Under the pieces are notes generated by a model, which did no database searches, was not told the DNA's origin, and was given only the letters and a program-made list of their open reading frames with translations. A stretch of DNA of 64,000 bases. Source: Candidatus Woesearchaeota archaeon (lineage in GTDB: Archaea > Nanobdellota > Nanobdellia > Woesearchaeales > ARS49). The DNA lies in NCBI GenBank assembly GCA_019323015.1, contig JAHWHY010000006.1, forward strand, positions 1,008-65,007, given 5' to 3'. Of the stretch, positions 3,173-30,352 are shown in pieces. Numbering within the stretch: the stretch's first letter is position 1; every line of letters starts with the position of its first letter. A program made the translations under genes and the position numbers.

Positions 3173-3292
3173 TTTTTTATTATTTTCGAAGTTTGAGATT
3201 AGAAAATCTTTGATTTTCTTAATCTACTGCTTCTTTTCATTGTTTATCGAATAAGATTTGGGCTTTGTTTAAAAGCCTTTTGTTAATATAAA

Positions 3293-3367
3293 TGCTCCCG
3301 CGGGGATTCGAACCCCGGTCCCGGCATCGAAAGTGCCGGATGATTGGCCGGACTACACCACAGGAGC
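3293..3367 (-). tRNA. tRNA-Glu (anticodon TTC)
   Basis: Reverse complement GCTCCTGTGGTGTAGTCCGGCCAATCAT CCGGCA cTTTCGa TGCCGG ... GGGGTTCGAATCCCCGCGGGAGC. Acceptor 7 bp, no intron. Confidence 0.85.
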
Positions 3368-3424
3368 ATATTCAGTCCAGTGTTGAAAAGTTCTATTCTG
3401 TTTTTAAAGCTTTTGAATAAAAAG

Positions 3425-3570
3425 TGGGCCCGCTGGGACTTTCAATGACCGAAGGGAGTTGAATTCCCTCGAACACATTTGAACCCAGGACCTCTGGCTC
3501 GCTTAGACGAGTTTTGTTTAAAACGTGGCCATATAAGACCAGCGCTCTAACCAAGCTGAGCTACGGGCCC
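3425..3570 (-). tRNA. tRNA with two introns (146 nt); anticodon reads TAT, so putatively tRNA-Ile(UAU)
   Basis: Reverse complement GGGCCCGTAGCTCAGCTTGGTTAGAGCG CTGGT cuTATa[32-nt intron]a GCCAG AGGTC CTGGG TTCAAAT[39-nt intron GTG...ATTGAAAG]T CCCAG CGGGCCC A. The first intron is at the canonical 37/38 site and the second between the T-loop and the 3' T-stem. Confidence 0.65.
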
Positions 3571-3628
3571 GTCTTCGTATAGAGAACTTGGAATTGTTTT
3601 TAAAAGTTTCTGTATTTAGAAAAGAACT

Positions 3629-4183
3629 TTGTGTATGCGTCACTTTAAATATTCTGCAATTTTGATAGGGTATATGCTTAAAAAAATAAAGAATCTGGTT
3701 GAAAAGAAAATCAAAGGCGGGCAGGTTGATATAAATAATTGCTGGCTCATCGATGGATTGAGTATATCCAGTCAAGAGGATTTTCTGATTTTTATTATTG
3801 AACATGTTCCTGACGACAGTGTCTGGGCAATTGAAGGTTGCTTTGACGATAACATGCTGAATGAGCTGAGGAAATACAAGACAGAGGATTCTGTCAAAGT
3901 TTTTCAGGCCTGTATTTCACAATGCACTGAATCAGGCTGGAATGATCCTATTCGTGCTAAAGTTCTTCTAAGCAAAGAAAACAAGCCCAAGATTATCGAG
4001 ATTATCAAGAAGCACAGCTTATGCTCTTTGATACATCACCACATATATTATAAAAGCATATTTTACTTTACCACATATGATAATTTTTCTGCATATGTTG
4101 CAGTGTCAAAAAAGTTTGACAATAAAGTTATGAATGATTACGCGGAAAAGAATAATATTAAATTTATTGAGCCTACTTTCTAG
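3629..4183 (+). CDS. hypothetical protein
   Basis: 184-aa ORF with no recognisable motifs. The start is uncertain; an internal Met at ~3674 is possible. Confidence 0.35.
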   Translation: MCMRHFKYSAILIGYMLKKIKNLVEKKIKGGQVDINNCWLIDGLSISSQEDFLIFIIEHVPDDSVWAIEGCFDDNMLNELRKYKTEDSVKVFQACISQCTESGWNDPIRAKVLLSKENKPKIIEIIKKHSLCSLIHHHIYYKSIFYFTTYDNFSAYVAVSKKFDNKVMNDYAEKNNIKFIEPTF

Positions 4184-4195
4184 AGATTTACTGCT

Positions 4196-4405
4196 TCAAG
4201 AAGTTTGAATTGATTGGCATTCCCATTGCGGTTCGCATTCTTTACTGCATCCTAAGAATACGGGACGCGTTCCTTCTGTACAAGTAATATCTTTATGTAC
4301 ACAATATTCTCCTTTGCAGCAACTATTGTCCTCTTTTTCATAACATTGTACAGTACAGCCTGCTACAATAAGGGCTAAAATCAAAAGTAAAAATGTTCTT
4401 TTCAT
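4196..4405 (-). CDS. small secreted Cys-rich lipoprotein (69 aa)
   Basis: Re-called from the internal Met MKRTFLLLILALIVAGC..., because the upstream part of the 119-aa ORF overlaps two tRNA genes. Signal peptide plus lipobox IVAGC, then 12 Cys in 50 residues including a CC doublet. Confidence 0.55.
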   Translation of the reverse strand: MKRTFLLLILALIVAGCTVQCYEKEDNSCCKGEYCVHKDITCTEGTRPVFLGCSKECEPQWECQSIQTS

Positions 4406-4444
4406 AAGCTTTTCAAAAAGGATGTCATATAAATATGTTTGTAT

Positions 4445-4514
4445 GCGCCAGCCGGGAATCGAACCCAGGCCACAACGTTGGCAACGTCGTATTGTACCAT
4501 TCAACCACTGGCGC
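4445..4514 (-). tRNA. tRNA-Gly (anticodon GCC)
   Basis: Reverse complement GCGCCAGTGGTTGAATGGTACAATA CGACG ttGCCaa CGTTG TGGCCTGGGTTCGATTCCCGGCTGGCGC. Confidence 0.85.
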
Positions 4515-4523
4515 AAAACTGAA

Positions 4524-4653
4524 TGGGCCCGGAGGGAATCGAACCCTCGACCCACACCTTTCTAAAGGCACTGGCCTTGGAAAGACCAGCAAAAATCGCA
4601 GATTTTTGCGCTGCCTTGTAAGGGTGTTGTCATAGCCGCTAGACCACGGGCCC
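4524..4653 (-). tRNA. tRNA-Val (anticodon TAC) with a ~58-nt canonical-position intron
   Basis: Reverse complement GGGCCCGTGGTCTAGCGGCTATGACA ACACC cuTACa[intron]a GGTGT GGGTC GAGGGTTCGATTCCCTC CGGGCCC A. Confidence 0.8.
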
Positions 4654-4759
4654 ATAAGTGTGAGGAAATATTATTGGTTTAAAAGGTTTACGCTATCTCG
4701 CGAATATAGAATGCAAATCGTTTTCGCGCTTGCAGCCTTGTGCTGCACTTGTTTGGATT

Positions 4760-4780
4760 CTAGCCTTTCTTAAAGGCTAG
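4760..4780. promoter_or_regulatory. 21-bp perfect palindrome in a divergent promoter region (tRNA-Val / Cys-lipoprotein array)
   Basis: CTAGCCTTT-CTT-AAAGGCTAG. Confidence 0.4.
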
Positions 4781-4870
4781 TTTGAAAGGTTTACTGTTCC
4801 CTGCGTAATTTGAGTAATGTTTATATAATAGAACGTCTGTAACAGTCTTAATATTAAAAAAGGTGATATT

Positions 4871-5230
4871 ATGCGAAAAGTTATTTTGCTAACACTTCTT
4901 GTTTGTCTAGCTTTGTTTGCTATTGGCTGCAAGTCAGGGGCTGCTGTTTATGGCAGATATCCTGGAAGCACAGACAAGGTTTATGTTCCAGAGTACCAGC
5001 ATCGTGCAGTTTTTTATCCAGTTGACATGTGCTGTGTGCTTGGAGACAGGCTTTATTGTGAAACTCCTCAAGAGATAGAGAACTGTTTAAGTCAGGGGGG
5101 CAGGCTTGCAAAGCCAGGAACAATCCCTACCTGCTGCGAGATTGGCGGTGAGATTAAGGGAAATATAGTGGAATCATTTACGTTTTACGACTGCCGTTCT
5201 AGAGGAGGACGTGTTGTTCCTTGTAGATAA
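4871..5230 (+). CDS. secreted Cys-rich lipoprotein, paralog 1 (119 aa)
   Basis: Signal peptide plus lipobox (LFAIGC) and 11 Cys with the pattern CC..C..QGG...CC...C..GG...C. SD AAAGGTGA and TATA GTTTATATAAT upstream. Confidence 0.7.
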   Translation: MRKVILLTLLVCLALFAIGCKSGAAVYGRYPGSTDKVYVPEYQHRAVFYPVDMCCVLGDRLYCETPQEIENCLSQGGRLAKPGTIPTCCEIGGEIKGNIVESFTFYDCRSRGGRVVPCR

Positions 5231-5242
5231 ATAGGTGATAAA

Positions 5243-5620
5243 ATGAGAAAAATAATCTTAACAACTTTAGTGCTGGCATGCTTGGCTGTGTTAGTCGGCT
5301 GCATGACAGGAGAAGCTATTAGAGGTCCGCAGGGTTATCCTGCAAGAGATGATATGACTTACAGGCCTGCTTATGAACAGCCTGTGCAGATGATTCCAAC
5401 GCCGACACCAGCTCCTGTTTGCTGTGAGCTTCGCTGTGAAACTGTTTGCGGAAGTTCTGGTGATCCTGCTGTAAGCAATTGTTTTGCTGCAGGCGGAAGA
5501 GCTATGCAGTGGGGTTTTGAATTTACCTGCTGTTACTTTGATAACACGCCGACATCTGAACATTCGTGGACAGAGTGTTTAAGGCAGGGCGGACATCCTA
5601 TCTCAATGAGGGTGCAATAA
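5243..5620 (+). CDS. secreted Cys-rich lipoprotein, paralog 2 (125 aa)
   Basis: Lipobox LVGC and the same repeated CC...C..GG module (CCELRC...CFAAGG / CCYF...CLRQGG). Confidence 0.7.
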   Translation: MRKIILTTLVLACLAVLVGCMTGEAIRGPQGYPARDDMTYRPAYEQPVQMIPTPTPAPVCCELRCETVCGSSGDPAVSNCFAAGGRAMQWGFEFTCCYFDNTPTSEHSWTECLRQGGHPISMRVQ

Positions 5621-5949
5621 TGAGATTCGCAATACCGCTCGTGCTTATTTTGTGCCTTATCTTGATAGGGTGTGAGACAAGCGGACAAGCATACCAAATG
5701 CCTGCAAAAGAGCAAGAGATTTATCAGCTTCAGTCTGCAAAAATCTGCTGCGCAGTCAAGAACCTGCGTGGCGAATTTGTTTACACTGTTGCTGAAAATG
5801 ATGCTGCATGCACTAATCTGCGAGGTATGGTGACAAACTGTCCTCGTGTCTGCTGTAATGTTAACGGCCAGATCTTCGGGGAATACAGCATTAACTTCTG
5901 CTTAATAAGAGAAGGCGTTCCTGTGCAGTGCCCTGCCCTGCGCTGGTAA
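5620..5949 (+). CDS. secreted Cys-rich lipoprotein, paralog 3 (109 aa)
   Basis: Start re-called at MRFAIPLVLILCLILIGC, giving a TAATG overlap with paralog 2. Pattern CC...C.NLRG...CC...C.REG...C. Confidence 0.6.
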   Translation: MRFAIPLVLILCLILIGCETSGQAYQMPAKEQEIYQLQSAKICCAVKNLRGEFVYTVAENDAACTNLRGMVTNCPRVCCNVNGQIFGEYSINFCLIREGVPVQCPALRW

Positions 5950-6006
5950 TATTTTTTTCTTCTTTCTTCAATAAGTTTTATATAGTATATATCAATAGCA
6001 AATTCT

Positions 6007-6753
6007 ATGGAGGATCGGCTTTTTCAGATGCTTGTTGAGGAGAATGAGATTAGCTGGAAGGCCATTATCTATGATCTTATCCGTAAGGAAGAGATGGATC
6101 CTTGGAATGTCAATGTTTCTTTATTGTCTCAGAAATACATTGAGCGATTGAAAGAATTAAAGCAGATGGATTTGAAAGTAAGCGGCAAGGTCTTGCTTGC
6201 TGCAGCTATTCTCTTAAAAATCAAGTCAAAAAGATTAGTTGGGGAAGACCTGAATGAGTTTGACAGGCTTTTGGCTGCAACTGATGTTGATGAGGATGAG
6301 TTTTATGACGGTCTTGCTGATGAATTAAGGAGGGGTGAGGAGCGTGCAATGTATGAAGGCATTGAATTGATGCCTAGAACTCCGCAGCCTAGAAAAAGAA
6401 AAGTTTCTGTGTATGATTTGGTCAAGGCTCTTGAGCAGGCCCTGGAAGTCAAGAAAAGAAGGGTGTTTAATTCTATTAGAGAGTCTAATGTAAAGGTTCC
6501 TGAGAAAAAGTTTGATATTAGCGAGGCAATTAAGGGAATTTATGGAAAAATTCTAAGCTTGTTTAAGTCAAAAAAAGAAGAGCAGATTGCTTTTAGCGAG
6601 CTGGTTCCTTCTGAATCAAGAAAAGATCATGTTTACACGTTTATTCCGCTTTTGCATTTATTCAATGAGGATAAGATTCATCTAGAGCAAAAAGAGCATT
6701 TTGGAGAAATTAATATCAAACTAAGAGGTGGTGATAAGAATGACTCTGACTAA
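6007..6753 (+). CDS. scpA: segregation and condensation protein A (ScpA kleisin)
   Basis: N-terminal DPWNV..L...Y...L......L...GKVLLAAAILLKIK pattern and an acidic middle; ~250 aa. Confidence 0.65.
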   Translation: MEDRLFQMLVEENEISWKAIIYDLIRKEEMDPWNVNVSLLSQKYIERLKELKQMDLKVSGKVLLAAAILLKIKSKRLVGEDLNEFDRLLAATDVDEDEFYDGLADELRRGEERAMYEGIELMPRTPQPRKRKVSVYDLVKALEQALEVKKRRVFNSIRESNVKVPEKKFDISEAIKGIYGKILSLFKSKKEEQIAFSELVPSESRKDHVYTFIPLLHLFNEDKIHLEQKEHFGEINIKLRGGDKNDSD

Positions 6754-6910
6754 GGATGATAAGATGGTGTTGAGAGAGATGGTTAAGCATGAACTTGCGA
6801 ATTTTGAGAAGACGCAGAAAAGCTTGTTTGTTGCAATGCCCCTAAGTTTTTTAAAGGGAGAACATGAATATAAGCATTACCTAGAGAAACTATTGAAGAA
6901 ATTGGAGTGA
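6728..6910 (+). CDS. hypothetical small protein
   Basis: 60-aa ORF overlapping the scpA 3' end; nothing beyond ORF context. Confidence 0.25.
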   Translation: MVIRMTLTKDDKMVLREMVKHELANFEKTQKSLFVAMPLSFLKGEHEYKHYLEKLLKKLE

Positions 6911-6914
6911 TATT

Positions 6915-7331
6915 ATGGCTAAGAAAGAAGAAGATGCTCAAATAATGCAGCAGAAGTATATGGAGATGCAGATGCTTGACCAGCAGTTAAAGCAGGTTCA
7001 GCAGCAGCTGCATGCAGTTGAGCAGCAGTCAATGGAAGTGGAGTCTGTGATAGATGCGCTTGGAAACATATCCAAGGTAGAGCCTGGTTCAGATATTTTG
7101 GTTCCATTGAGCTCTGGTATTTTTATCAAGGCAAAGATTCAGGATAACAAGGAATTGCTTGTCAATGTCGGCGGCAACACTACTGTGAATAAGTCTGTTC
7201 CAGAGGTGCAGGAGATGCTGAAAAAGCAGGTTGCAGAGCTGGAAAAAGTCAAGAAAGACTTGACAGAGCATTTCACAAAGTTTGCTGACAAGATGCAGAC
7301 GCTTCAGGCAGAGTTGATGAAAGGAGAATAA
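6915..7331 (+). CDS. pfdA: prefoldin alpha subunit
   Basis: 138 aa with a Q-rich coiled coil, two beta-hairpins (ILVPLSSGIFIKAKI / LLVNVGGNTTV) and a second coiled coil. It sits directly upstream of ftsY, a conserved archaeal neighbourhood. Confidence 0.75.
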   Translation: MAKKEEDAQIMQQKYMEMQMLDQQLKQVQQQLHAVEQQSMEVESVIDALGNISKVEPGSDILVPLSSGIFIKAKIQDNKELLVNVGGNTTVNKSVPEVQEMLKKQVAELEKVKKDLTEHFTKFADKMQTLQAELMKGE

Positions 7332-7336
7332 GGAAC

Positions 7337-8722
7337 ATGTTTGGCTTTCTAAAGAAGAAACTTAAGGGAGCTCTCGACAAATTTACAAAGAAGGTCGAGG
7401 AAGAGGCTCCTGAAGAAGAGATAGAGGTCAAGAAAGAAGTAGAGGTAACGCCAGAAGAAGTTAAAAAAGAAGCTAAGGCTGAAGAAAAGCCAAAAGAAGA
7501 AGTTAAAGAAAAGCCAAAAGAGGAAGTCCAGAAAGAGCCTGAAGAAAAAATTTCTAAGGAAAAAGAAAAGATTGTTGAAGAAGTTAAAGAAGAGATTCCA
7601 GATATTGTTGAAGAAGTAAAGGAAGAGCCTAAAGAGGAAATCAAGAAAGAAGTTGAAGAAGAGATTCCAGAAATAATTGAAGAAGAAGTTAAAGAAGAGC
7701 CAAAGGTTGAAGAAAAACCTGTTGAAAAACCTAAAGAAGTTCCAAAACCCGAGCCAAAAGTTGAAAAACCTGCTCCTAAACCAGAGGTTAAGGTTGAGAA
7801 ACCAAAACCAGTTGTTAAAGAGGCTCCAAAAGAGGAAGAGCCTAAGAAAAAAGGATTTTTTTCATTTATCACTGAAAAAATTACTACAAAGAAAATTTCA
7901 GAATCACAATTTGATGATTTGTTTTGGGATTTAGAGCTGGCTATGCTTGAAAACAACGTGGCAGTGGAAGTTATTGAGAAAATTAAGTCAGATCTTAAGA
8001 CGACTCTTACAACAGCGAATATTCCTAGAGGAAAGGTTGAGGAAACTGTTATGAATTCTTTGAAACAGTCTGTTAGTGAATTGTTTGATGTTGACCAGAT
8101 TGATTTGCTTGCAAAACTAAAGGAAAAAAAGCCATTAGTGATTTGTTTTGTTGGAATCAATGGTTCTGGAAAAACAACTTCAATTGCAAAGGTTGCTAAT
8201 ATGTTCTTAAAAAATAAGGCTTCTGTTGTTCTTGCTGCTGCAGACACTTTTCGGGCTGCTGCAATTGATCAATTGCAGTTACATGCAGATAAATTGGGTG
8301 TAAAACTAATCAAGCATGATTATGGCGCTGATGCAGCTGCTGTTGCTTTTGATGCTGTTAAGCATGCAGAGGCAAAGGACAGGGATGTTGTCTTGATTGA
8401 TACTGCTGGCAGGCTTCATTCTGATCATAATCTTGTTGAGGAGATGAAGAAGATTGTTAGGGTCTCAAAGCCAGATTTGATTGTTTTTGTTGGAGAAAGC
8501 ATAACTGGAAATGACTGCACAGAACAGGCTCAGAAGTTTGATGAGGCTGTTGGCATTGATGGAATTATCTTGTCAAAAGCAGATGTTGATGAAAAAGGCG
8601 GTGCAGCTATCAGTGTTTCCTATGTTACAAAGAAGCCTATTCTCTATATGGGTGTTGGTCAGGAATATGCTGATTTGGCTCCTTTTGACAAAGAGCAGCT
8701 TCTTGCTACATTATTTTCATAA
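7337..8722 (+). CDS. ftsY: signal recognition particle receptor FtsY with a long K/E-rich N-terminal repeat extension
   Basis: C-terminal NG domain with GINGSGKTT, DTAGR and GESITGND motifs. The N-terminal ~170 aa are EEVK/EEPK repeats. Confidence 0.9.
   Translation: MFGFLKKKLKGALDKFTKKVEEEAPEEEIEVKKEVEVTPEEVKKEAKAEEKPKEEVKEKPKEEVQKEPEEKISKEKEKIVEEVKEEIPDIVEEVKEEPKEEIKKEVEEEIPEIIEEEVKEEPKVEEKPVEKPKEVPKPEPKVEKPAPKPEVKVEKPKPVVKEAPKEEEPKKKGFFSFITEKITTKKISESQFDDLFWDLELAMLENNVAVEVIEKIKSDLKTTLTTANIPRGKVEETVMNSLKQSVSELFDVDQIDLLAKLKEKKPLVICFVGINGSGKTTSIAKVANMFLKNKASVVLAAADTFRAAAIDQLQLHADKLGVKLIKHDYGADAAAVAFDAVKHAEAKDRDVVLIDTAGRLHSDHNLVEEMKKIVRVSKPDLIVFVGESITGNDCTEQAQKFDEAVGIDGIILSKADVDEKGGAAISVSYVTKKPILYMGVGQEYADLAPFDKEQLLATLFS
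7380..7860 (+). repeat. low-complexity K/E/P codon repeat inside ftsY
   Basis: Reiterated gaagaagttaaagaa / aaagaagagcc units. This is also what produces the spurious antisense Ser-rich ORF 7273-8247. Confidence 0.7.
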
Positions 8723-8752
8723 TCTGGCAAAACCTTTTTTTTGGCAGGTTCT

Positions 8753-8772
8753 AAAATCACTATAGTGATTTT
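8753..8772. promoter_or_regulatory. 20-bp perfect palindrome between ftsY and the DUF4870 gene
   Basis: AAAATCACTATAGTGATTTT. Confidence 0.4.
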
Positions 8773-8833
8773 AGTAAAGTTTATAAAGGATTTATTCAAT
8801 TTTTCTCTATTATAACTAAAGGGGGTAATACAA

Positions 8834-9154
8834 ATGACTAAAGACATAGAAGAAGGTAAAATATTTGCGTTTTTGGCTTATTTGCTTAGCATAATTGGTT
8901 TCTTGATCGTGCTTTTGGCAAAGAAGGACAACAAGTTTGCTATGTACCACGCAAAGCAGTCACTTGTTTTGTTTATTGTGTACATGATTGGATGGGCGAT
9001 TCTTGTGTTCATACCTTTTCTTGGATGGGGCCTGCTGCCTGTTTGGTGGGTTATAATGGTGATAATGACCATTATTGGAATAATTAATGCTTTTTCAGGC
9101 AAGGAAAAGCCATTGCCGATCATCGGCAAGTATGCTAAGAAAATTAAAATTTAA
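8834..9154 (+). CDS. DUF4870-family small membrane protein
   Basis: LAYLLSIIGFLI ... FAMYHAKQS ... two TM helices. SD AAAGGGGG upstream. Confidence 0.55.
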   Translation: MTKDIEEGKIFAFLAYLLSIIGFLIVLLAKKDNKFAMYHAKQSLVLFIVYMIGWAILVFIPFLGWGLLPVWWVIMVIMTIIGIINAFSGKEKPLPIIGKYAKKIKI

Positions 9155-9165
9155 TTTTTTTATTT

Positions 9166-20887: not shown

Positions 20888-21235
20888 TTATTTTACAATG
20901 ATTTTAGCAGATTCTCCTTCTCCCATCTCTATTGCTCCGCCTGTATATACTATTGTGCTGTTTGCTACTTGCGGCGGTTGTGTTTGTGCTGCTGTTGTTA
21001 TTGGAGGCACTGTTGTGTTTTGTGTATTGTTTTCAATGCTTGTGTTGCTTTCTGTTTTATTTTCCAGTATTTTTGGAGGCATAACTGTTATTTCCTGCTT
21101 TACCTCAACTTCAGGCTCTTTTGGTACTGTCTTGCTCTCTGTTTCATTCATGCCTGCCAATTCTTCTGCTGGCGGAACACATGCTATTACCAGAAGTAAT
21201 AGGCTTATTGCTGTTAGTATATGTATTGCTTTCAT
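20888..21235 (-). CDS. secreted lipoprotein, T/N/P-rich, hypothetical
   Basis: Signal peptide plus VIAC lipobox. Confidence 0.5.
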   Translation of the reverse strand: MKAIHILTAISLLLLVIACVPPAEELAGMNETESKTVPKEPEVEVKQEITVMPPKILENKTESNTSIENNTQNTTVPPITTAAQTQPPQVANSTIVYTGGAIEMGEGESAKIIVK

Positions 21236-29611: not shown

Positions 29612-30352
29612 TTAATTATATGTATTTTCTTTAGAAATCCTGTAATAATCATATTTGATGCTGCAATTTGTGAAGTTTTTTGCAATCTGGTTCATTCCTT
29701 CTGAATCAAGGTCTTCTGCTTCTGCAGGCCTTATGTTATCTGCTGTTATTTTTAGTGTATTGCCTTCTTTTTTAATATCAAGGGTCCAGGCATGCATTTT
29801 GTGTGCAGAGAATGAGTTGCAAGCCAGGAAAGGGTACTTTTCAACAGCAATTCCTTCAGTTGTGTATGGCTCCACTTCCAGTGACCAAATATATCCTCTG
29901 AAATTGCCTCCTGCTCCAGTATGCTTTATAGAATATGTGTAGGTGTGGTTGATATGTTTCCAAAAGTATATGCTTTTGTCTATATTTTCGCAGATTTTTT
30001 TGTCTTTGAACAGTTTTGTCTTAAGAATTGCTTCTGTTATGATGCTTGGCGGCAGGTCTTTGAACAATACTTCATTAAAGCATCCTTGTTTGAATTCTTT
30101 TTCAAGTTTTTCTGTTTCTTTTTTAGAAAAGCCCAATTCATTTAGAACAGCATAAGGCTCATCAAATAATTTTTTCCCTGTAGAATCATAGCATTTTGTG
30201 TGTGTCTTGCCATCCCAAGTATTAAAAGCAGAGTTGCAGGCGAAAATTGCTTCTTTAATCCCTTCATATTCGCTCTCTTGCTGTTCTTTGGCAGTGCATC
30301 CTGCCAGTACTGCTGCTAAGCATATGAATAATATTAAATATCTTGCCCCCAT
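29612..30352 (-). CDS. secreted lipoprotein, hypothetical (246 aa)
   Basis: Signal peptide plus LAGC lipobox; preceded by the 47-bp repeat copy 2. Confidence 0.6.
   Translation of the reverse strand: MGARYLILFICLAAVLAGCTAKEQQESEYEGIKEAIFACNSAFNTWDGKTHTKCYDSTGKKLFDEPYAVLNELGFSKKETEKLEKEFKQGCFNEVLFKDLPPSIITEAILKTKLFKDKKICENIDKSIYFWKHINHTYTYSIKHTGAGGNFRGYIWSLEVEPYTTEGIAVEKYPFLACNSFSAHKMHAWTLDIKKEGNTLKITADNIRPAEAEDLDSEGMNQIAKNFTNCSIKYDYYRISKENTYN

Follow-up and report, generated by a model that had tools for sequence, protein, structure and literature searches.

Most DPANN archaea are uncultivated and presumably dependent on contact with other cells, and their surface proteomes are almost entirely uncharacterised. 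The described proteins closest to those treated here are the archaeal lipoproteins. The enzymes of archaeal lipoprotein biogenesis were identified only in 2025, in a haloarchaeon, with the AliA/AliB pathway described in Haloferax volcanii (PMC12462473). In that study, lipobox proteins are predicted to be common in DPANN and exported mostly via Sec, Sec is reported as their route in all archaea but the haloarchaea, and AliA (arCOG02177), the enzyme of lipidation, is reported from DPANN "with some gaps" (PMC12462473). Here we analysed a 64-kb stretch of Woesearchaeota DNA (contig JAHWHY010000006.1), called the window below, in which three adjacent plus-strand genes at 4871-5949 encode small Cys-rich proteins, named P1, P2 and P3. 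They form a new family within an already known kind, that of predicted archaeal lipoproteins. With modest conviction, we read the triplet from its sequence as co-transcribed paralogues of lineage-specific, lipid-anchored, disulfide-stabilised surface binding modules, whose ligand can be named only as a candidate.

All three precursors begin with MRK or MR, followed by 14-16 hydrophobic residues and a lipobox, which reads AIGC in P1, LVGC in P2 and LIGC in P3, with the lipobox Cys at positions 20, 20 and 18, respectively. A basic n-region and an uninterrupted hydrophobic h-region are present in each. We tested the lipoboxes against a PROSITE-PS51257-like rule, in which the canonical form is [L/V/I] at -3, [A/S/T/V/I] at -2, [G/A/S] at -1 and Cys at +1, with the Cys at residues 15-35. 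P1, P2 and P3 all pass, in agreement with the signal peptide and lipobox assigned to each in the preliminary description of this locus. LVGC and LIGC are canonical, and AIGC, with Ala at -3, passes the broader rule only. The Pfam family LPAM_1 gave no match at E <= 1 for P1-P3, and gave E = 0.055 for the orthologue P0005. The G-C of the lipobox is invariant in the 16/16 family members that we assembled. Because the twin-arginine motif is absent from P1, P2 and P3, the precursors would be exported through Sec, unfolded. The invariant Cys would then receive a membrane lipid through a thioether link, presumably made by an enzyme of the AliA type, and the signal peptide would be cleaved off. The triplet proteins are accordingly described here as predicted Sec-type archaeal lipoproteins, a reading that fits a known kind because lipobox proteins are predicted to be prevalent in DPANN. 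With the predicted lipobox lipoproteins of non-halophilic archaea they share a signal peptide ending in [L/V/I/A][V/I]GC, the invariant Cys and the lack of a twin-arginine motif. They differ in having a tiny, orphan, Cys-rich mature part instead of a substrate-binding protein or an enzyme.

A second conserved motif directly follows the lipobox Cys. It has the form C-x-[S/T]-[S/T]?-G-x-A, as in GC-ETSGQAY, and is invariant in 16/16 family members (4928-4951, 5300-5320 and 5671-5694 in the window). The same motif occurs in two unrelated large lipoproteins of a Nanoarchaeota metagenome-assembled genome (MAG; locus L021, 3214-4035 and 4032-6353), as GC-QTTGQAY and GC-KTTGQAT. It may be a maturation or sorting signal of DPANN lipoproteins.

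The mature proteins have two parts. After the lipobox Cys comes a stalk of 20-36 residues in which Pro, Tyr and Gln together make up 30-46%; in an AlphaFold2 model, residues 1-32 of mature P1 have predicted local distance difference test (pLDDT) values < 50, indicating disorder. The stalk would hold a globular head above the membrane. The head is 69-71 residues long and contains exactly 8 Cys, a share of 11.3-11.6% compared with 1.24% in 54 long open reading frames (ORFs) of the window. Each precursor contains exactly 10 Cys, fewer than the 11-13 first counted: eight belong to the head, and the h-region and the lipobox have one each. Six head Cys do not vary among the 16 members: a CC doublet, a helix Cys, a second CC doublet and a second helix Cys. 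The remaining two shift between subfamilies, always as a pair, so that the Cys spacing is conserved in the family alignment at six positions and mobile at two. In P1, one Cys of the variable pair follows strand 2 and the other is at the C-terminus. P2 lacks a C-terminal Cys and has a subfamily-specific CxxxC in module 1, and P3 has one Cys in the sequence NCPR ahead of the second CC and one at the C-terminus. Counted by module, the Cys are divided 4+4 in P1, 5+3 in P2 and 3(+1)+4 in P3.

The preliminary description had seen two copies of a CC...C...GG module in each protein. The family alignment was cut ahead of the second CC, and the two parts were aligned with each other by hhalign. Module 1 aligned with module 2 in register (CC with CC, helix Cys with helix Cys, GG with GG) over 27 columns, with a score of 20.0 and P = 1e-4. 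When the columns of module 2 were shuffled (n = 300), the mean score was 7.8 (standard deviation 1.9, maximum 15.7), and 0/300 controls reached 20. An internal duplication is thus supported by the alignment, and only the proposed spacing needs correction, since three residues, and not two (C-x2), separate the helix Cys from the following pair in both modules (C-x3-[G/R/E]-G). A head-only AlphaFold2 model (pLDDT 79.3, predicted template-modelling score 0.56) has the topology ββαβ-ββαβ, with strands at 4-7, 10-12 and 28-30 around a helix at 16-24 in the first half, and strands at 37-41, 44-50 and 64-67 around a helix at 52-60 in the second. The head would be an ancient tandem duplication of one ββαβ module, in which strand 1 has the CC and the helix has a Cys with x3-[G/R/E]-G after it.

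The eight Cys probably form four disulfides that would lock the head: the six invariant Cys would provide three, and the fourth would be a subfamily-specific staple. We favour this assignment because Cys are gained or lost in pairs, because the number of mature Cys is even in every credible lipobox protein of the window and of the related loci that we fetched (8, 8, 8, 8, 8, 12, 6, 0, 14 and 32), and because the triplet heads have no CxxC knuckles and no conserved His; conserved Asp is likewise absent from them.

Comparison with known families gave little. Pfam and NCBIfam scans of P1-P3 and divergent members returned only sub-threshold matches (PROL5-SMR, TTc_toxin_rep, DUF4995 and the LptM signal peptide). 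The best hit of a profile search of PDB sequences was a diabody at E = 1.3, and Foldseek searches with two models against PDB, and against BFVD, found nothing at E < 1. The only recognisable small-protein entry in the Foldseek list was the Kazal inhibitor 1cgi_I, which is not significant (E = 6.6, TM-score 0.28). With no match to Pfam Kazal in the P1-P3 scan, we rejected a Kazal-type inhibitor. A knottin, defensin or granulin-like fold, which had been suggested for checking by structure prediction, is not supported by the doubled ββαβ model, which has no significant Foldseek match. We do not place the heads in the metallothionein or zinc-ribbon-type class, which is marked by CxxC or CxC knuckles or by about 30% Cys; the heads have no CxxC knuckles, contain 11.5% Cys and divide their Cys variably between modules. 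A precursor of a ribosomally synthesised and post-translationally modified peptide, such as a sactipeptide, was rejected because no maturase is encoded nearby and lipoprotein signal peptides are present. A literature search on Cys-rich surface proteins of DPANN found nothing relevant.

A parallel can be drawn with fungal hydrophobins and other small eight-Cys secreted proteins, namely plant non-specific lipid transfer proteins and related eight-cysteine-motif proteins, and thionins, in which the Cys order is C-CC-C-C-CC-C. These proteins resemble the triplet head in being secreted, about 70 residues long and pseudo-twofold, with eight Cys, two CC doublets and probably four disulfides. In the head, however, the order is CC-C-C-CC-C-C and two of the eight positions are mobile. 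From the triplet there was no hydrophobin-like match in Pfam at E <= 1 and none in PDB by Foldseek, and the triplet is archaeal and predicted to be lipid-anchored. We therefore do not count it among the hydrophobins, with which, in Cys pattern, it shares only the two CC doublets.

P1, P2 and P3 are real, conserved paralogous genes, by the comparative evidence given below. P1 (4871-5230, plus strand, 119 aa) has its signal peptide at residues 1-19, the lipobox Cys at 20, a stalk at about residues 21-50 and the 8-Cys double module at residues 51-119 (5021-5227). P2 (5243-5620, plus strand, 125 aa) has the same order of elements, with a Pro/Thr-rich stalk (TPTPAP), as has P3 (5620-5949, plus strand, 109 aa), with a short stalk (ETSGQAYQMP...). 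The P3 start codon and the P2 stop codon share one base in the sequence TAATG (5618-5622), as described before. A mechanical ORF list places the P3 start at a GTG at 5566. The real start is the ATG at 5620, because orthologues all begin at the Met (MR or MK) that corresponds to it. The three genes are called in public assemblies, and an exact-protein look-up located the locus on JAHWHU010000008.1 (GCA_019323035.1) and on several contigs from metagenomes. "Candidatus Woesearchaeota archaeon" is the source name given for the closest homologues. The window itself contains an archaeal small-subunit (16S) rRNA gene at 558-2183 and the start of a large-subunit rRNA gene, both on the minus strand.

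To assess selection, dN/dS was calculated by the Nei-Gojobori method on orthologue pairs drawn from at least five related genomes or metagenomes, with dS ranging from about 0.4 to 1.5 and beyond. P1 orthologues are 51-92% identical, with dN/dS of 0.11-0.28; two pairs are exceptions, one at 0.50 and the other because its dS is saturated. The values for P2 are 0.11-0.14 and for P3 0.10-0.24, and most triplet pairs lie between 0.10 and 0.19, which supports the reading of all three ORFs as coding. The neighbouring genes gave 0.08-0.24 (prefoldin) and 0.03-0.13 (scpA). Divergence among the paralogues is strong (21-35% identity). P2 finds P1 by BLASTP at E = 2e-14, the similarity of P3 to P2 is weak (E = 9e-4), and P3 joins the family through the profile.

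The spacing of the genes, 12 nt between P1 and P2 and a 1-nt overlap between P2 and P3, suggests that they are probably one operon read as a single tricistronic transcript. A 33-nt promoter-like element, TTTGAGTAATGTTTATATAATAGAACGTCTGTA, lies at 4809-4841 on the plus strand and recurs almost unchanged ahead of the first family gene in four related loci; it occurs once in the window. Within it, at 4820-4828 and about 45 nt before the P1 ATG, TTTATATAA has the position and sequence expected of an archaeal TATA box. Transcription would start from this one promoter. Shine-Dalgarno sites AGGTGAT precede the start codons of P1 (4861-4867) and P2 (5233-5239, inside the P1-P2 spacer) by 3-4 nt, and an SD-like GAGGGTG for P3 lies inside the 3' end of P2 (5608-5614). 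All three, on the plus strand, are complementary to the 3' end of the window's 16S rRNA, ...GGATCACCTCC, and the P1 site is conserved in orthologous loci. Each cistron would have its own ribosome-binding site, with P2 and P3 translationally coupled through TAATG. Directly after the P3 stop codon, a T-rich tract with a run of seven T, TATTTTTTTCTTCTTTCTTC (5950-5969, plus strand), is likely an archaeal oligo-T terminator. A scan also reported a weak hairpin with a T tail at 5926-5945.

The family is an orphan restricted to one narrow lineage, as far as sequence searches reach. A word-indexed search of 5.8 billion clusters returned 10 proteins, and an exhaustive HMMER profile search of 1.84 billion representatives gave six matches. 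Two of those six, P0012 (805 aa, 12 stretches) and P0013 (530 aa), were rejected as homologues, being low-complexity tandem-repeat translations. The family-wide alignment is too divergent for a back-translated locus search, and the scan of one genome per species (185,579 species) used the P3-group alignment. It found the P3 type in only two Woesearchaeota MAGs, both already known, plus one match to the signal peptide only. No further family members occur elsewhere in the window.

The genomic slot is the same in every locus: between a tRNA cluster beside the rRNA operon and the genes scpA, prefoldin and ftsY. Its conserved upstream border in the window is formed by tRNA-Gly(GCC) (4443-4515, minus strand) and a presumably intron-containing tRNA (4524-4653, minus strand), an arrangement identical in L006, L008, L011 and L012. 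Downstream, scpA (6007-6753, plus strand) is followed by prefoldin and ftsY, and the Pfam domain SMC_ScpA is found in every related locus. The slot holds three genes in the window and in its closest relatives (16S about 97% identical), P1, P3 and a barely recognisable 158-aa third lipoprotein in L008, and just one gene in each of two relatives that are more distant (L006, where it is P3-like, and L015, where it is P1-like). Since every locus has the same slot with one to three copies, we conclude that the family is vertically inherited and was expanded by local tandem duplication. A foreign island beside tRNA genes was considered and rejected: the G+C content of the triplet is 41-47% against a window mean of 40%, and there is no sign of recent transfer because synteny is strictly conserved in the relatives.

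The third lipoprotein of L008 is an uncalled 158-aa ORF (3505-3981, plus strand), opposite to a public gene call on the other strand. It has an AVGC lipobox, a 70-residue stalk of Pro, Gln, Tyr and Ser and a head of the form CC...C-x3-GG...C..CC...C...C, and it occupies the position of P2 in the slot. Similarity scores are low (BLASTP 2e-4 to P3, hmmsearch E = 0.32, hhalign probability 4.5%), and it is a possible remote member of the family.

What the heads do was judged from their architecture. We do not take the head for an enzyme, because its size is too small for one and its conserved polar residues are too few; most likely it would be a rigid module that serves binding or shielding at the cell surface, the candidate ligand being a component of a partner-cell or host envelope or some other extracellular molecule. 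Several points weigh against this reading. A binding or adhesion role is the default deduction from architecture and not from homology, the assignment of disulfides is indirect, and the AlphaFold2 model comes from a shallow alignment (13 sequences, hhalign Neff about 3) and is of moderate confidence. In anoxic sediments, the presumed habitat of Woesearchaeota, extracellular disulfides would depend on an oxidising system, and the four Cys per module of P1 could also make up two Cys4 metal sites. The dN/dS values give no sign of diversifying selection, a frequent trait of proteins that interact with a host. A bolder version, in which the doubled ββαβ head is a new disulfide-rich fold displayed for partner or host recognition and G-x-A is a DPANN-specific signal, strikes us as doubtful.

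The main rival of the disulfide-stabilised binding module is metal binding. The proteins would then be surface lipoproteins whose Cys coordinate Zn, Fe or Cu, for example in two Cys4 sites, for metal capture, buffering or redox. The 4+4 division of Cys suits P1, and P3 if the linker Cys is counted with module 1, but P2 divides its Cys 5+3 and lacks the C-terminal one, so the ligand positions are not fixed. Likewise, the β-hairpin and helix of the module are a layout also used by small zinc-binding domains, yet CxxC knuckles and conserved His or Asp are missing, and vicinal CC pairs rarely chelate one ion. The likely anoxic habitat of Woesearchaeota would favour metal; against this stand the even Cys counts of unrelated exported proteins in these loci, which disulfide formation would lead one to expect, a Cys density far below that of metallothioneins, and unfolded export through Sec, after which any cofactor must be acquired outside the cell. 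On this balance we consider metal binding unlikely. A shade less probable is that the triplet encodes surface-anchored inhibitor or immunity proteins, each paralogue blocking a different extracellular enzyme or toxin. MliC/PliC-type lysozyme inhibitors and the immunity lipoproteins of type VI secretion systems act by binding and not by catalysis, and such small bacterial lipoproteins are, like the triplet, about 100 residues long and often tandem paralogues. This reading would explain tandem diversification and variable copy number, and it suits small, rigid, disulfide-rich, lipid-anchored heads in an array of one to three copies among close relatives, as well as the great divergence of the paralogues. 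The Kazal entry in the Foldseek list points the same way without being significant. However, the triplet has neither sequence nor fold similarity to the MliC/PliC-type and immunity lipoproteins, nor homology to any known inhibitor or immunity family, no toxin, effector, protease or secretion-system gene adjoins it, and selection is purifying and not of the arms-race kind.

Two further readings carry still less weight with us. High Cys content and small size could suggest released Cys-rich effector or antimicrobial peptides of the knottin, defensin or granulin-like type, with the lipobox a chance feature. We hold this to be very improbable: the lipobox G-C does not vary in any of the 16 members and is followed by the conserved G-x-A, and the predicted fold is α/β with two helices and matches no knottin, defensin or granulin structure and no Pfam family. 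The idea that the ORFs are chance ORFs or decaying pseudogenes in a variable region beside tRNA genes could draw on the complete absence of annotation for the family, on the different P3 starts given by public gene callers and on a frameshifted relative, P0010. It is effectively refuted by the purifying dN/dS values; the conserved promoter and Shine-Dalgarno sites, the invariant Cys framework and the synteny kept across genomes with about 97% identical 16S rRNA, and beyond, also oppose it, and we give it almost no credence. P0010 itself, a P2 orthologue on an ENA metagenome contig, equals P0003 to residue 82 and then runs out of frame, as a frameshifted allele or an assembly error.

The triplet lies in a stretch that is rich in small Cys-rich exported proteins. 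When ORFs of this kind with at least four Cys were sought uniformly across the window, eight were found, all within 4196-13107, and a ninth Cys-rich protein, at 10742-11080, uses a TTG start. The local concentration proposed in the preliminary description is real. Its assignment of the nine proteins to two families, by contrast, gives way to four mutually unrelated sequence groups (the triplet, four membrane-anchored proteins and two singletons), and one shared specialised system for the 9-kb stretch, the extracellular function once suggested, is not supported: the families are unrelated, and housekeeping genes (scpA, prefoldin, ftsY, a DEAD helicase and an ArsR-type regulator) are interleaved with them. 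Flanking by tRNA genes holds upstream (3292-3368, 4443-4515 and 4524-4653) and is loose downstream, where the next are at 16359 and 17073.

The membrane-anchored group consists of four tandem genes at 9832-11080 (minus strand) encoding proteins of 96-112 aa with an uncleaved-looking N-terminal transmembrane helix and no lipobox. They share an invariant C-x4-C...C-x-C-P and have four Cys each, six in the last, and could be a zinc-knuckle-like or two-disulfide surface domain. The genes are syntenic in relatives (L008 8898-10146, L009 5641-6838 and L015 6025-6979). All 39 homologues are unannotated, and the few with source names come from Woesearchaeota MAGs. The singleton at 12823-13107 (plus strand), already noted as a lipobox ORF, encodes a 94-aa protein with 12 mature Cys and no annotation. 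Its ATG overlaps the stop codon of a SIMPL/DUF541 gene (12041-12826, plus strand) by 4 nt, and the two are probably co-transcribed. It has 15 homologues, the named ones from one Woesearchaeota and one Aenigmatarchaeota MAG. Both the 9832-11080 family and this lipoprotein are DPANN-restricted orphans that, like the triplet, are small, exported, unannotated, even in Cys number and syntenic in the same relatives, but they have no detectable sequence similarity to P1-P3. The other lipobox ORF noted earlier, at 4196-4405 (minus strand), encodes 69 aa with a VAGC lipobox and eight mature Cys, including one CC, in a sequence unrelated to P1-P3. The segment around it, bordered by tRNA-Glu and tRNA-Gly, is variable and in L008 contains HNH and kinase genes instead.

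Two more lipobox ORFs without Pfam matches are encoded on the minus strand, at 29612-30352 (246 aa, six mature Cys) and 20888-21235 (115 aa, none). Right after the Cys-rich stretch, a 283-aa P-loop protein (13275-14126, minus strand) has a weak Pfam match to Zot (E = 8e-6), a filamentous-phage assembly ATPase. The tRNA genes at 4524-4653 and 17073-17200 (both minus strand) are about 130 nt long, presumably through introns; Rfam finds them and ARAGORN in bacterial mode misses them. The window's 16S gene measures 1626 nt against a model of 1478 positions and contains a segment of about 100 nt (about 1346-1445) that is absent from the 16S of the relative L011, where a different insert, of about 47 nt, occurs at another place; both are lineage-specific rRNA insertions.

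Taken alone, the triplet is an orphan family in one narrow clade, useful and not surprising. Its value lies in being a compact set of DPANN Sec/lipobox substrates of about 100 residues each, which are easily synthesised. They could be used for testing the archaeal lipidation machinery on DPANN lipoboxes and for asking whether extracytoplasmic disulfides form in DPANN. The head may be a new small disulfide-rich fold worth solving.

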